Assembly: GCF_000621645.1 (NCBI RefSeq)
Contig: NZ_JHXR01000030.1
Span: forward strand, 1 to 32,000
Direction: 5' to 3'
Origin: Vibrio cholerae ATCC 14035
GTDB lineage: Bacteria > Pseudomonadota > Gammaproteobacteria > Enterobacterales > Vibrionaceae
Length of the DNA stretch: 32,000 nucleotides
Shown: in pieces, positions 412 to 7,693 of the stretch
How positions within the stretch are numbered: position 1 is the first letter of the stretch
How the letters are laid out: each line of letters starts with the position of its first letter
Translations under genes and position numbers: made by a program
The notes under the pieces: generated by a model
Told to the model about the DNA's origin: nothing
The model's database searches: none
What the model saw: the letters and a program-made list of their open reading frames with translations, nothing else

Positions 412-1443
412 TTACAAATTGGAAAGCGGGTTTCGTGTGATCGCGTCTGACAAATGGTCGGGGGCAAAGTGCGAATAACGCATCGTCATCGAGATATCCG
501 CATGGCCGAGAACGTCTCTTAGCACCAGAATATTGCCGCCATTCATCATAAAGTGGCTGGCGAAGGTGTGACGCAATACGTGAGAAGCTTGCCCAGATGG
601 AAGAGTGATCCCGAGCTTATTTTTTAGAATGTAGCAAAACGGTGTATAGCACTCTTCAAACAAACGGCCAGAAGTGGGCTTATATATCTCCTCGTAGAGT
701 TCACGAGAAATGGGTACTGTCCTGTTCTTCTTGGTTTTAGTGTTCGTGTAGGTAATTTTATACTCGGATAGCTGGCTACCCCGCAGTTTTGCCGCCTCAT
801 TCCAGCGTGCGCCAGTTGAAAGGCAAATCTTAACAATCTTGAGCATGTCAGCAATTTCGTGTTGAGCAACTAACTCAAGCAGCAGTTTGATTTGCTCGGT
901 GGTGAGGAAAGACATCTCCCTTTCAGATTCCCTAAATGGCTTTACGTCATCAAGTGGGTTCGGTGCATTCCATTCACCCAGTTCTTTCAGTTTATTGAAT
1001 ACCGCTTTAAAACGTGCCAGCTCAGAATTCATGGTTGAAATGCTGGGTTTGCCTCGATTCCAACGGCCATCAACAAAAATAAGCTCGCCGGACATACGTC
1101 TGCTTCGGAAGTCTGAATAAGTTTTTGCTGAAAAGGTGGCTGCGATAGGGTTGCCCATCGCATTCACCATGTGGTGAAACTTTTGAATGATCACATCACC
1201 ATTCACTAATGTACGACCGTAATGCGAGTACCATAATTCAACAATGTCACTCAGCCGCCTATTATCAGGCTTACTCCCCATCCACGGTTTATCATCCACC
1301 TCACGCATGATGAAGTTTTCATAAGCGGTGGCCTCACCTTTGGTGGCGAATCTTTTACGCACGCGCTTACCTTCGCGGCCTTGCGGGTAACACTCGCAAA
1401 GCCACGGTTTTTTGCTGCCATCTTTAAGATTGCGAACGGACAT
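412..1443 (-). CDS. int: Tyrosine recombinase / phage integrase
   Basis: 343 aa. C-terminal catalytic motifs TGARWNEAAKL, HVLRHTFASHF and LGHADISMTMRYSHF. The start overlaps the upstream stop (TAATG, 1445-1441). Confidence 0.95.
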   Translation of the reverse strand: MSVRNLKDGSKKPWLCECYPQGREGKRVRKRFATKGEATAYENFIMREVDDKPWMGSKPDNRRLSDIVELWYSHYGRTLVNGDVIIQKFHHMVNAMGNPIAATFSAKTYSDFRSRRMSGELIFVDGRWNRGKPSISTMNSELARFKAVFNKLKELGEWNAPNPLDDVKPFRESEREMSFLTTEQIKLLLELVAQHEIADMLKIVKICLSTGARWNEAAKLRGSQLSEYKITYTNTKTKKNRTVPISRELYEEIYKPTSGRLFEECYTPFCYILKNKLGITLPSGQASHVLRHTFASHFMMNGGNILVLRDVLGHADISMTMRYSHFAPDHLSDAITRNPLSNL

Positions 1444-1856
1444 TACTGGGAAACACAGATTGATTTGAACTTCTGAACAACAGCGTTAATAGCTTTGCGT
1501 TGCTCTTCTACTGCATCCTCGTTAATTGTGCCTTTTGAGTATGAATAGACGTGGCCGACGTATATTTTAGAGCGCATCATAACGTCATTATAAACTTCAC
1601 GGGTAAGTGACAAATCAGGGCTCATTAATTCTTTTGGTGATAGTTCATTAGCTGTGATGATTTTCTCAATTTCAGGATTGAAGGTGTTAACACGCCATTG
1701 AGCTATGGTTTTGTGATCAGCGTTTTGCTTATGCAAGCGTAAAGCTTGAACCACAAGATGAACGGATGGAGACAGCATAGATTCAGCTTTTTCACAGTCC
1801 GTTGAAGCAAATGCCGATGTCGAAAATAAAAGTAATAGAGGTAGTAATCGCATCAT
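1443..1856 (-). CDS. Secreted/periplasmic small protein (137 aa), unknown function; occupies the slot of K139 glo
   Basis: Start chosen at ATG 1856-1854, which overlaps the upstream stop (TGATG). N-terminus MMRLLPLLLLFSTSAFA/STDC is a classic Sec signal peptide with an AxA site. The mature part has one Cys near each end. The gene is AT-rich. Confidence 0.7.
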   Translation of the reverse strand: MMRLLPLLLLFSTSAFASTDCEKAESMLSPSVHLVVQALRLHKQNADHKTIAQWRVNTFNPEIEKIITANELSPKELMSPDLSLTREVYNDVMMRSKIYVGHVYSYSKGTINEDAVEEQRKAINAVVQKFKSICVSQ

Positions 1857-2761
1857 CAGCCACCAATCAGAGCAAGCCATGCTTGTTCGGTAAGGATTTT
1901 TGTAGATGAGCCACTTTTGCGATTATTGATAACTGATTCAATTTTTCTACCATGGCTAGTATGAATCCAATCACGGCTGGCCATAGAACCAATAACAAGT
2001 AGGTCTAGTTGTTTATTCACATCAGAACGAACATCTGCACCAAGTTCTTTAGCTTTATTTTCAATAGACTTACGATTACCAGCGAAAAACTTTCCAGTAA
2101 AACAAACTTGTAGTCCAGAAATAGAATTAACTACGACATCATCAGAAAAGTAATCAGTTGCAAAACATTCAGCGCAGCCAGTGTCCGTGAACTGTTGTCC
2201 ACAGATAGACTTCAACATTGATAGAAGCTCATGACGTTCTTCATCATCCACGATGCCATCAGAAAGAATTTTGTTTAAACGTTGATGAATAACATCGCCC
2301 GGCCAATTTGCGATAACTTCTCTGTTAGAATTAAGCATCTTATTAAGAGCATGAATTTCTTTATCGTTGATGGAGTCGTCCGCAGTAATACCTTGCAAAA
2401 AACCAAGGAGTTGATTAATCAAACCATCAGATTCCCAACCATCTCTGAAGCCATAATTCAAAATATCTTTAATCAAGTTTCTAATTTCTGTTAACTCATG
2501 TTCTTCAACAACGCCATCTTCAAGAACATCCTCGATAAGATCTCTCAAATCAAGAAAGTCTCCATCCTTCTTAAAAGCCGTGTCGGTTTTTAACCAAGTA
2601 TCAAGAAATAGGACTTCCGTTGGATTAAGGCGTCTATCAGCCTGAATGCCGGATAGAATGCCTTGTAGTGACTTCAATGCTTTTTCTTTATTACGCTTAT
2701 AGTTAATGCCCCATGAAGTGGGTTGTCCATGTTCATCAATATCAACAATTCTATCTGTCAT
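1856..2761 (-). CDS. Tandem helical-repeat (TerB-like?) protein with C-terminal BRCT-like domain
   Basis: 301 aa with an internal duplication: aa 30-104 (..LQGILSGIQADRRLNPTEV..LEDGVVEEHELTEIRNLIKDIL) and aa 117-187 (..LLGFLQGITADDSINDKEI..LSDGIVDDEERHELLSMLKSIC). The C-terminus VCFTGKFFAGNRKSIENKAKELGADVRSDVNKQLDLLVIGSMAS...KILTEQAWL resembles the LigA-type BRCT pattern. It lies 25 nt downstream of cI on the same strand. Confidence 0.6.
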   Translation of the reverse strand: MTDRIVDIDEHGQPTSWGINYKRNKEKALKSLQGILSGIQADRRLNPTEVLFLDTWLKTDTAFKKDGDFLDLRDLIEDVLEDGVVEEHELTEIRNLIKDILNYGFRDGWESDGLINQLLGFLQGITADDSINDKEIHALNKMLNSNREVIANWPGDVIHQRLNKILSDGIVDDEERHELLSMLKSICGQQFTDTGCAECFATDYFSDDVVVNSISGLQVCFTGKFFAGNRKSIENKAKELGADVRSDVNKQLDLLVIGSMASRDWIHTSHGRKIESVINNRKSGSSTKILTEQAWLALIGG

Positions 2762-2786
2762 CTTTCATTCCCTAGCCAATTAAAAA

Positions 2787-3434
2787 TCAATCTTTTCTTA
2801 GAGTCACCGCGACACGGCCAAGCACTTTAATGTCGTGTTCTGATACTTCAATCGTGCTTTCACCAAACGCAATCGCCAGCTTTTTGCCGGGTAAACGCTG
2901 AATATGGTTAACCGACAAACGGCCATCAATATCAATCAAGTAGTTACCGGAAACCGCATCCCGCGAATCGTTATCCACCAGATAAAGCGCCTCATTGGTT
3001 TCAACTTCAATCGTGCTGCCAGATTTCAGGTTAAAGCTATTCATCCGGCGAACGGGGTAAGGGATCTCGCCAGTTTCAAGAAGCTGACCGTTTGTCAGGC
3101 AGAATGATTTGAGAATGACGGTTTCATGCTGGGGATTAATCAACTTCTTCTGAAGGTGGGTGTAATCCTGAGGAGCCTCGGCAACTTGATGCGTTGCTGG
3201 TTCATCAATGCCTAGCGCCATCTTTGCAATAGGGATGCCCTTCGCCAGATGAAGTCTCACCATCAATTCGTGAGATGTACGATTGTGAAGGTTCCAAGTG
3301 CTGAAAGTCGCTTTAGGTACATCAAAAAGTTCAGCCATATCGCCAAACGTTGAACATCCTGTAACTTCCTTTAAAACCTCTGTGAATTCATGACCTTTTA
3401 TATAGTCAAAAGGTGGAATCTTTGTGTTTTTCAT
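2787..3434 (-). CDS. cI: CI-type prophage repressor (N-terminal HTH, C-terminal S24-like fold that appears non-catalytic)
   Basis: 215 aa, divergent from the cox-like gene. The C-terminal segment ALYLVDNDSRDAVSGNYLIDIDGRLSVNHIQRL..VLGRV follows the LexA/S24 beta-barrel pattern. I cannot find a GDSM Ser motif, and the Lys position reads Q (NHIQRL versus TVKRL). Confidence 0.7.
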   Translation of the reverse strand: MKNTKIPPFDYIKGHEFTEVLKEVTGCSTFGDMAELFDVPKATFSTWNLHNRTSHELMVRLHLAKGIPIAKMALGIDEPATHQVAEAPQDYTHLQKKLINPQHETVILKSFCLTNGQLLETGEIPYPVRRMNSFNLKSGSTIEVETNEALYLVDNDSRDAVSGNYLIDIDGRLSVNHIQRLPGKKLAIAFGESTIEVSEHDIKVLGRVAVTLRKD

Positions 3435-3582
3435 ATCGCCACGAGTTTATTTTTTGACATTGATCGCTATTTGTTTACTTGCGTGATTGTTTTTGGCGAT
3501 CTAATATCTGTTTGTGTTCCGGTTCCAACGCCGACCAAGACCGAATAGAACCGATGATTTAACAACGTTTAAGGATATCACC
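3435..3582. promoter_or_regulatory. Divergent lysis/lysogeny switch region with repeated ATCGCYA half-sites
   Basis: ATCGCCA at 3435-3441, ATCGCTA at 3463-3469 and inverted TGGCGAT at 3494-3500. TTGACA at 3454-3459. Candidate rightward promoter TTGCGT (3479-3484) -17- TAATAT (3502-3507). Confidence 0.5.
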
Positions 3583-3795
3583 ATGCTGACATATGAGGTA
3601 GCACCCGAAAGCCCATACGTGACCTGTGAAAAGTATTCCGTCATTTCCGGTTTACCGATGGGCACCATTCGCCAGTACATCGCAGAAGGGCGAATCATCA
3701 TCAAACCCAAAACCAAAACGAAAGAAAAACCCTTAGTCAACATGGTTGCGATGCACGAAATCGCAGCGCGTGAAGCTATGCAGGTGCTGGGGTAA
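3583..3795 (+). CDS. cox: Cox/Apl-like small HTH protein (lytic repressor/excisionase type)
   Basis: 70 aa from ATG 3583, preceded by AAGGA. YVTCEKYSVISGLPMGTIRQYIAEGRII parallels the P2 Cox segment YQEFAKLIGKSTGAVRRMIDKGKLPVI. It is the first gene of the rightward operon opposite cI. Confidence 0.65.
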   Translation: MLTYEVAPESPYVTCEKYSVISGLPMGTIRQYIAEGRIIIKPKTKTKEKPLVNMVAMHEIAAREAMQVLG

Positions 3796-3905
3796 TCATG
3801 CGTTTCTCCTCCCTGATTCCAACTAAAAACTATTGCCCGTTGTGGCTACATCTGTTTGCAGCGTCAGTCATTTGCATACCGCCTTTTATATAAGGATTGT
3901 TAATT

Positions 3906-4445
3906 ATGGTTTCTGACATCGCCATGTATGAATTACGTGAACGCAAACAGCAAGCTTACAACGCCGTTTGCAGTGATTTCGTTGTCAATCACAACATTGA
4001 ACAGCTCGCCAAACGCATTTCGTTAGACGGGCAATCGCTGCGCAACATGCTCAACCCTGCACAGCCGCACAAACTGAGCCCAGTTGATTTAGTGCTGCTG
4101 TGCAAGGCATCAGGGGATTACACCATCATCAATACCCTTTTCAGTGATTGCGGCGTAGTTGCCGTGGCGCTGCCAGAGCAAGGGGAAGAAAAGAACATCA
4201 TTGAGCGCGTACTGCTCAACACCTCGCTTTGTGGGGAACTCTCTAGTGATGCAATGCAAATGTGCACCGCAGAGCGTTTACCGCGCAGCCGTAAGCGCAA
4301 AACCCTCGCGAAGTGCCAAGCCGCCTTGGGCAACTTGGCATTACTGATCGCCGATTTAGAAAAACGCACAACAGGCCTGCAACCCTTGATACAAATGGGT
4401 TCGGATTTCATGGCTCAAGGTGCGCCAATCCCCGGATTCGCATAA
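3906..4445 (+). CDS. cII: Phage regulatory protein CII (186 CP76 family)
   Basis: 179 aa from ATG 3906 (SD AAGGA). Position after cox and sequence character (..LAKRISLDGQSLRNMLNPAQPHKLSPVDLVLLCKASGDYTIINTL..) fit the CP76/CII family as I recall it. Confidence 0.6.
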   Translation: MVSDIAMYELRERKQQAYNAVCSDFVVNHNIEQLAKRISLDGQSLRNMLNPAQPHKLSPVDLVLLCKASGDYTIINTLFSDCGVVAVALPEQGEEKNIIERVLLNTSLCGELSSDAMQMCTAERLPRSRKRKTLAKCQAALGNLALLIADLEKRTTGLQPLIQMGSDFMAQGAPIPGFA

Positions 4446-7112: not shown

Positions 7113-7693
7113 TTCCACGCATCAAGAACCCTGTTAAGCAGGGGCAGGTAATTATGATTGATGGACGTTATTTCTCTAATTTCGGTAAGAAAGGCCAAGT
7201 GCTGACCGCTTGGTCTTTGGCTGGTGCTGAGGTCTTTTTAGGTGATCTGGCTCCGGTACTTAAAAAGCTGGATGAGAAAGGGAAAAAGTACACGGTTCGT
7301 CTTGTTGAAGTGCAAGAGCGCTCAGGGCTGACTTTGAAAGATTTCTACCAACTTTCTTACCAGCTCAGACGCATGGTCATTAAAGCCGAAGTAATTAGCC
7401 CAATTATCGGATGTAGCGAGTTAGCCAGAAAAATCAGCTTATTATCAGCAGCGGTTGTTATGTTGGAAAGAGAGTTTTCAGACGAGTGTTTGAAAAAAGT
7501 AGGTATCAACATTAGTAGCAACTTGTTCAAGTATTCTTACCCGTTGGAATACACACTCGATTGCATTGAGGTAGGGCTGAAAGACCGACTACTAGTATAC
7601 AAAGAACACAAAAAAATAGATGCACTTCGCCGCGAACAGTATCTATTGAAAGGTGGTGATCTATGCGTATTTGATGCGGATGTACCATTTTGA
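7109..7693 (+). CDS. Hypothetical protein (194 aa), AT-rich, immediately upstream of the replicase
   Basis: Start at ATG 7109 by translational coupling. No domain recognised. Confidence 0.55.
   Translation: MIPRIKNPVKQGQVIMIDGRYFSNFGKKGQVLTAWSLAGAEVFLGDLAPVLKKLDEKGKKYTVRLVEVQERSGLTLKDFYQLSYQLRRMVIKAEVISPIIGCSELARKISLLSAAVVMLEREFSDECLKKVGINISSNLFKYSYPLEYTLDCIEVGLKDRLLVYKEHKKIDALRREQYLLKGGDLCVFDADVPF

Follow-up and report, generated by a model that had tools for sequence, protein, structure and literature searches.

The window analysed here is a 32,000-nucleotide stretch of Vibrio cholerae ATCC 14035 (RefSeq assembly GCF_000621645.1, contig NZ_JHXR01000030.1, positions 1 to 32,000 of the forward strand), which carries the lysogenic operon of a prophage near its left end. 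Two genes of this operon, orf2 and glo, lie between the repressor gene cI and the integrase gene int and form the subject of this report. All four genes are packed closely on the minus strand in the order cI, orf2, glo, int, and the features of the locus (in window coordinates and in the direction of transcription) are as follows.

3536-3573, minus strand: PL promoter and lysogenic transcription start, predicted by transfer from the annotation of phage K139
2787-3434, minus strand: cI, repressor of the 186/K139 type, 215 amino acids, first gene of the operon
2762-2786, minus strand: spacer between cI and orf2, 25 nucleotides, with a Shine-Dalgarno-like AGGGAA (read from the sequence)
1856-2761, minus strand: orf2, cytoplasmic protein of 301 amino acids
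2450-2701, minus strand: helical repeat 1 of orf2, residues 21-104, with the motifs G-I-x-A-D..L..E and L-E-D-G-V-V..E
2201-2431, minus strand: helical repeat 2 of orf2, residues 111-187
1862-2125, minus strand: BRCT domain of orf2, residues 213-300
1443-1856, minus strand: glo, exported periplasmic protein of 137 amino acids, with its signal peptide (residues 1-17) at nucleotides 1806-1856
412-1443, minus strand: int, tyrosine integrase of 343 amino acids, last gene of the operon, its start overlapping the glo stop

A first-pass annotation, made from the letters of the DNA without database searches, had described a 25-nucleotide gap after cI followed by two stop/start overlaps, and direct reading of the sequence bears this out: TGATG at 1858-1854 joins the orf2 stop to the glo start, and TAATG at 1445-1441 joins the glo stop to the int start. 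Its assignment of the outer genes to a lysogenic operon also holds, with Pfam matches of Int to Int_N (E 4e-29) and Phage_integrase (E 7e-19) and of CI to Phage_CI_repr (E 2e-16) and Phage_CI_C (E 9e-13). A terminator scan detected no terminator-like site on the minus strand between the cI stop codon and the far end of int, the 25-nucleotide spacer included; the lone minus-strand match (3348-3329) is weak and lies within cI. The K139 record places the PL -10 element at 3879-3884, the -35 element at 3903-3908 and the lysogenic start at 3871 (K139 coordinates), and the window equals K139 sequence from 3497 onward with an offset of 335, covering the annotated PL region; a consensus promoter scan of the window did not pick up PL. 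The co-directional arrangement, tight spacing, terminator-free course and conserved PL are consistent with cotranscription of cI, orf2, glo and int in the lysogen. Both inserted genes had been noted as AT-rich, and their guanine-cytosine (GC) content (37.9% for orf2 and 39.4% for glo, against 48.2% for the window) agrees, with 1443-2761 having the lowest GC among 614 sliding 1.3-kb windows.

The identity of the segment is readily established. By megablast, window positions 1237-3900 are 99.4% identical to Vibrio phages K139, Kappa, 919TP, VcP032 and VPUSM8. Orf2 matches K139 Orf2 (Kappa kp3) at 100% over 301 amino acids (tblastn), and the RefSeq label on that protein already reads 'BRCT domain-containing protein'; Glo is 100% identical over residues 11-137 to K139 Glo, which the K139 record describes as 'periplasmic protein; involved in phage exclusion'. 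The first-pass annotation had named orf2 and glo of K139 as the occupants of this slot, and this proved right. Positions 1443-2786 are best read as part of a K139-type Vibrio prophage, namely the stretch of its lysogenic operon (PL, cI, orf2, glo, int) that contains orf2 and glo. The gene content and order, the phenotype of Glo and the BRCT label have all been recorded before. The K139 work on orf2 and glo goes back to Reidl and Mekalanos (1995) and Nesper et al. (1999).

The prophage is a mosaic. It shares with K139/Kappa (GenBank AF125163, NC_003313) the cI-orf2-glo-int order, the gaps and the PL region, but differs in the N-terminal half of CI, the operator, the integrase and the adjoining host gene. 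Near-identity to K139 extends over the cassette of orf2 and glo, the C-terminal part of CI (one substitution across residues 106-215) and the sequence from 3497 onward, whereas window positions 412-1236 (most of int) and 3120-3496 (the N-terminal part of CI, residues 1-105, and the PR/operator region) have diverged; Int and its K139 counterpart share only 51% identity, and it is at window position 1237 that the DNA begins to match K139. Because CI residues 1-105, the PR/operator region and most of int have diverged, the sequence suggests that immunity specificity and attachment site differ from those of K139.

The first-pass annotation had presented orf2 and glo as a coupled pair, a cytoplasmic BRCT protein with a periplasmic partner, and had staked this idea on the two genes occurring together in relatives. 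Essentially, they do so only in K139. The genomic context of glo is readable in six relatives (designated L203, L204, L205, L206, L042 and L043), and glo stands without orf2 in all six. The order is cI-glo-int in L205 and in L203 (a V. cholerae strain with a Glo of 88% identity), glo-int in L206, and cI-glo followed by genes for 151 and 61 amino acids, a DUF6414 gene and int in L204. In V. fluvialis (L042), a gene for 271 amino acids lies between cI and glo and a KAP NTPase gene between glo and int, and in Nitrincola (L043) cI and glo are followed by GNAT, M78 and Beta_protein genes, an opposite-strand P4 cII-like gene and int. The 271-amino-acid protein of V. fluvialis was considered as an Orf2 relative and rejected (hhalign probability 0.06%); it has no Pfam or PADLOC match.

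The converse survey covered 118 Orf2-family loci (38 contigs from one genome per species, 79 from IMG/VR, and K139), grouped into 56 clusters at 90% identity. Glo is absent from 116 of these loci, the other two being K139 and its IMG/VR copy. None of the 38 species-dereplicated genome loci with an Orf2 homologue has glo within 6 kb, and a single cluster of the 56, that of K139, carries both genes. Because the two genes do not co-occur in relatives outside K139, the pairing is rejected, and as far as gene neighbourhoods can tell orf2 and glo are independent passengers of the same operon rather than a two-part system. On the same comparison, glo appears to belong to the K139-type cI...int module, with orf2 a later insertion between cI and glo. 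The simplest history would be an ancestral cI-glo-int arrangement with two entry sites for cargo, one lying between cI and glo (used by orf2 in K139) and the other between glo and int.

Cargo of the second kind is recognisable in several relatives. The interval between glo and int holds PD-Lambda-2-like genes in Nitrincola (L043, 6516-9113), with components B and C matched at E 1e-53 and 2e-34; the KAP NTPase gene in V. fluvialis (L042, 6431-7873), with matches to the PADLOC models PDC-S20, QatA and PifA; and the DUF6414 gene in L204 (5602-7147). The PADLOC scan of other slot cargo (L049, L050, L053, L056, L060 and L204) gave no matches. Because relatives carry PD-Lambda-2-like genes and a KAP NTPase (PDC-S20) there, the cI-int interval of K139-type prophages appears to behave as a hotspot for defence cargo, in keeping with the earlier expectation that exclusion or defence genes would be found in this slot.

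Glo itself fits the description of an exported protein. An alternative start at 1880 would give 145 amino acids, and the homologue alignment favours 1856 (137 amino acids). The signal peptide is MMRLLPLLLLFSTSAFA/ST (the slash marks cleavage), with an n-h-c reading of MMR, LLPLLLLFSTS and AFA/ST; a signal region is present in 14 of 14 Glo homologues, with the predicted cleavage site being AxA, IA or YS. Two cysteines, C21 and C134, are invariant in the 14 homologues, so that the Sec signal peptide and the two cysteines read from the DNA at the outset both stand. The AlphaFold2 (AF2) model has a predicted local distance difference test score (pLDDT) of 90.4 and shows the mature part as a four-helix bundle, which a C21-C134 disulfide may close according to the model. 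The fold found no significant match in the PDB (best E 0.41), and the predicted bundle corresponds to no solved structure; generic four-helix bundles (talin and chemoreceptor sensor domains, E >= 0.4) and the Pfam ORF126-like match (E 0.052) were set aside as not significant. The 15 Glo homologue clusters all lie in K139-type lysogeny modules where the context is readable.

Later papers agree with the K139 record and with the earlier description of Glo as a periplasmic exclusion protein, and the published K139 work has Glo reducing superinfection in part and influencing virulence. Glo is described there as a soluble periplasmic superinfection-exclusion protein (PMC3952083), its exclusion function is also summarised elsewhere (PMC8537503), and it is linked to virulence (PMC3986222; PMC8537503; PMC13171446). 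The exclusion proteins of P22 (Sie), lambdoid and HK97-type phages and Streptococcus (Ltp) share with Glo the export to the envelope and expression from the lysogeny module; Glo, however, is reportedly soluble in the periplasm and not anchored in a membrane (PMC3952083).

Apart from Glo, the segment encodes the less understood Orf2, which had been described as two tandem helical repeats fused to a BRCT-like domain. Both elements were recovered. Pfam BRCT (PF00533) is matched at residues 215-259 with 26.8 bits, above the gathering cut-off of 21.3 (E 6e-6), and by 40 of 40 aligned homologues. The AF2 model, built on the homologue alignment (pLDDT 84), places two units of four helices each (residues 21-104 and 111-187) ahead of a BRCT fold at 218-300, with strands at 218-222, 243-245, 254-257 and 288-291 and helices between. 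The helices fall at 21-38, 47-57, 67-82 and 87-104 in repeat 1 and at 111-125, 133-151, 155-166 and 173-187 in repeat 2, and hhalign aligns residues 15-108 with 109-200 over 69 columns (probability 99%, E 3e-18), which identifies them as genuine repeats. Foldseek matches the BRCT part to the BRCT domains of LigA, RFC1, Rad4 and the PR1 phage ligase, with a probability of 1.00 for RFC1, LigA and Rad4.

Each helical unit bears the acidic motifs G-I-x-A-D...E and D-G-x-h-x-x-x-E. The repeat consensus written down in the first-pass annotation was only approximate, the conserved core being D-G-x-h-x-x-x-E (D82..E89 and D168..E175). Its comparison with TerB/DjlA-N holds for these motifs, which resemble EF-hand motifs as well, and is weakly supported as regards family membership: TerB/DjlA-N domains (PF05099, clan TerB-like) likewise repeat an acidic helix-loop-helix motif of the form D-G-x-h-x-x-x-E, but no member of the Orf2 family is Pfam-significant. 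The window Orf2 gave no TerB (PF05099) match at E up to 1, and the weak matches in 7 of 40 homologues (best E 0.0016) fall under the Pfam threshold, with GA_3 and EF-hand models scoring similarly; TerB membership is thus not established. Models of YmfL and a CII-like regulator match locally and weakly at residues 68-100. No enzymatic domain was detected in Orf2.

The conserved positions of the BRCT domain (C220, F221, T222, G223, R230, A261-S-R-D-W265, G271, K273 and E275) include those of a phosphate pocket, for which T222 is nearly invariant and G223, R230 and K273 are invariant in the family. The F-T-G...R of Orf2 aligns with L-T-G...R of E. coli LigA, and K273 probably corresponds to the pocket lysine of the LigA/RFC1 class. 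The corresponding residues of RFC1 (p140), T415, G416, R423 and K458, are those that bind the 5' phosphate at a DNA end. Orf2 shares the fold and the aligned T-G and R positions with the LigA and RFC1 domains but has neither ligase nor clamp-loader domains, and its BRCT domain is set apart from LigA/RFC1 by an insertion (A-S-R-D-W...G-R-K-I-E) that is peculiar to the family and invariant within it. By this likeness to the pocket residues, the Orf2 BRCT domain would be expected to bind 5'-phosphorylated DNA ends or nicks.

The architecture had been called unusual, a view that the size of the family overturns. A word index returned at least 463 Orf2 homologues, and a profile search places the family at 899 representative clusters at E<1e-30 (about 900 or more sharing the architecture); the protein also matches PHROG 3989 (function unknown) at E 6e-135. 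Short members keep repeat 2 and the BRCT domain only. Others have additional BRCT domains or a LigA-type HhH2 module fused to them, which counts in favour of DNA binding. A thermonuclease gene comes after the short homologue of Sulfurimonas phage SNW-1. Pseudomonas phage Lodos (L125, 1212-2344) has a one-repeat BRCT homologue beside int and a gene for a small BamE-like exported protein, an adjacency that is probably a coincidence within a cargo region.

The family gene has a lower GC content than its flanks in 94% of the 118 loci (median difference 7.9 points), and Orf2 is in these respects best regarded as a mobile, AT-rich, single-gene cargo module. A repressor gene directly adjoins it in at least 76 of the 118 loci and at least 23 of the 56 clusters, counts that are lower bounds because cI was detected by BLAST against only four reference repressors. 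Two layouts recur. In the P2/K139-like layout, cI, orf2, variable genes and int are all co-directional. In the lambdoid layout (Providencia, Proteus, Serratia, Citrobacter and others), orf2 is convergent with a repressor gene of the HTH_3 plus S24 type and overlaps its 3' end, and beyond the repressor lie a YdaS-type Cro and then a CP76-type CII. At L029, L079, L081, L088 and similar lambdoid loci, though not at all, co-directional open reading frames of 59-79 amino acids with one or two hydrophobic segments stand directly upstream of the orf2 homologues, as judged by crude calling of open reading frames. No recognisable repressor adjoins the gene in 27 of the 38 species-level genome loci. The non-prophage neighbours include HerA, an LmuB-like SMC protein, PDC-S37/Hhe helicase-nuclease, RhuM, PIN-PhoH and integrases, and a bSEFIR gene follows the orf2 homologue in L063.

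The closest link to a listed defence candidate is PDC-S48, a single-gene candidate of PADLOC that is itself untested. Residues 120-257 of Orf2 match positions 233-375 of the 411 in this model (E 3e-8). In L017 (5336-6879), a DEDDh exonuclease gene and an Orf2-homologue gene share 7 nucleotides where the end of the former runs into the start of the latter, and the exonuclease matches PDC-S48 positions 7-173 (E 9e-35); the two genes look to be a split PDC-S48 with the same domain order. Because Orf2 and the L017 exonuclease match separate parts of the model, PDC-S48 can be read as an exonuclease fused to the repeat-plus-BRCT part, and Orf2 as the same module without the nuclease. Orf2 shares with PDC-S48 the helical repeat plus BRCT part but has two helical repeats and, aligning to 233-375 only, no DEDDh exonuclease domain. 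No paper mentioning PDC-S48 was found in the literature searched.

Taken together, the observations favour a reading in which orf2 and glo are independent passengers, Glo acts in exclusion and Orf2 is a DNA-end-binding cargo protein of the lysogen; a probability of about 0.55 is assigned to this package as a whole. That Orf2 serves defence is a tentative proposition, held at somewhat below even odds. Under this proposal, the lysogen would make Orf2 constitutively together with CI, and its LigA/RFC1-type BRCT domain would bind 5'-phosphorylated ends or nicks, such as the cos ends or the replication or recombination intermediates of an incoming phage. The bound protein would hinder the processing of foreign DNA, for example by competing with the host ligase for the sealing of cos ends, while the acidic repeats might serve in regulation, metal binding or partner recruitment. 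Orf2 would then form an intracellular layer behind the envelope-level exclusion by Glo. Extending the idea to the whole family, as a widespread single-gene immunity module beside prophage repressors that blocks phage without a nuclease through 5'-phosphorylated ends or nicks, is more doubtful still.

In favour of a defence role stand the match to PDC-S48, the defence cargo that relatives carry in the K139 slot, and the neighbours of the family, which include bSEFIR, HerA, LmuB-like, PDC-S37/Hhe and RhuM genes. Lambda RexA/RexB and BstA of Salmonella phage BTP1 offer an analogy of position and logic, being, as orf2 presumably is, lysogen-expressed genes beside cI; no relation of sequence or fold exists, and Orf2 as found here has neither a channel partner nor a KilA-N domain. 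BstA is described as acting at sites of phage DNA replication (PMC8585504).

Several considerations weigh against the favoured reading. No recognisable effector domain is present in Orf2 that would indicate how a phage is stopped, PDC-S48 is only a candidate system and its nuclease is missing in Orf2, and BRCT domains also bind phosphoproteins. A position beside cI suits a regulatory role equally well, and a protein that binds nicks or ends could damage the DNA metabolism of the healthy lysogen itself. The literature searched, whose coverage did not extend to the primary 1999 K139 paper, contained no Orf2 experiments. Furthermore, many of the viral Orf2 loci are near-duplicates, and the repressor-adjacency counts are only lower bounds. 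The searched literature likewise yielded nothing on BRCT-based phage defence or on Orf2 function, and a BRCT mention in an integron preprint proved to be a false word match.

Among the alternatives, the one that survives best, though unlikely, holds that Orf2 assists the lysogeny switch, sensing DNA damage such as nicks or ends and modulating repressor activity, induction or excision. The placement of Orf2-family genes directly beside cI in two unrelated prophage layouts argues for it, as do the standing of BRCT as a classic module of the DNA-damage response, a K139 CI of the 186 type that has no S24 self-cleavage domain, and the weak YmfL/CII-like regulator matches. Those matches, however, span just the acidic repeat motif of about 30 residues, and the lambdoid repressor partners have a cleavage domain (S24) of their own. 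Furthermore, K139-type relatives do without Orf2 (cI-glo-int), and several of the examined loci that have no recognisable adjoining repressor lie among defence or island genes.

Slightly less probable is a role in protecting the DNA of the phage itself (Gam-like capping of its ends against host nucleases) or in countering a host defence such as DdmABC. A BRCT domain of the end- and nick-binding class would suit such a function, and Pseudomonas and Sulfurimonas phages capable of lytic growth have short homologues in their early or moron regions. A 2026 study (PMC13171446) reports a statistical link between ddmABC state and K139 prevalence that is unexplained, which counts for the anti-defence form of this alternative. 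Yet the gene stands in the repressor operon, implying lysogen rather than lytic expression, the family is also found in non-prophage defence islands, and the nuclease on the fused relative PDC-S48 fits attack better.

A further possibility arose from ion-channel genes found near the family. A Kv-type channel of about 240 amino acids (TTVGYGD filter, RxxR S4 helix) adjoins the Orf2 homologue in 5 of the 118 loci, namely L002/L047 (cI, orf2, channel, int; an Aliivibrio prophage), L018, L016 and L020, in both gene orders, and these channels are 26-31% identical to one another. Orf2 might accordingly be pictured as the sensor in a Rex-like pair for abortive infection, with the channel effector missing in K139, leaving Orf2 an orphan or dependent on a host channel. 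This is improbable, and the idea of a pair was downgraded: a survey from the channel side found 74 of 76 viral loci without Orf2, a 95%-identical channel gene stands immediately after cI in L127 with orf2 absent, and no ion-channel gene lies beside orf2 in the window. The channels appear, by their distribution, to be independent cargo that also sits beside cI. Prophage Kv channels recur near repressor genes in L127, L129-L131, L143, L149, L168, L184, L188 and L193, as direct neighbours in L127 and L129. We know of no described role for prophage Kv-channel genes.

Weakest of all is the notion that Orf2 and Glo form one system across the inner membrane (a cytoplasmic BRCT sensor with a periplasmic partner), for which the TGATG overlap, the common operon, the shared AT-richness and the similar neighbourhood in phage Lodos could be cited, and which founders on the separate occurrence of the genes on both sides of the survey, on the disparity between 15 Glo clusters and at least 463 Orf2 homologues, and on stop/start overlaps being routine in phage operons, with glo and int joined in the same manner.

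The surroundings of the operon call for brief mention. In the left flank (28-333), a host gene comes to its 3' end and is followed by a strong terminator-like hairpin (311-333); the C-terminus encoded there resembles that of GMP reductase GuaC. Flagellin genes adjoin the K139-type relatives L042 and L203, unlike the flank of the window prophage. A second GC dip (39.7%) at window positions 7351-7650, outside the orf2-glo segment, may mark a further cargo gene.

Prophages of the K139 type are widespread in pandemic Vibrio cholerae, and their deletion is a routine laboratory means of making hosts sensitive to phage. Probably among the few genes expressed by the lysogen is orf2, to which no function has been assigned since the 1990s despite a family of about 900 representative clusters, and genes of this family recur next to the repressor genes of prophages in Vibrio, Aliivibrio, Providencia, Proteus, Serratia and other genera. 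The separability of orf2 and glo spares experiments designed around a nonexistent pair. Should Orf2 turn out to serve defence or to guard lysogeny, the known bacterial repertoire would gain a DNA-end sensor built on BRCT, and the patterns of phage resistance in cholera strains would be easier to explain.

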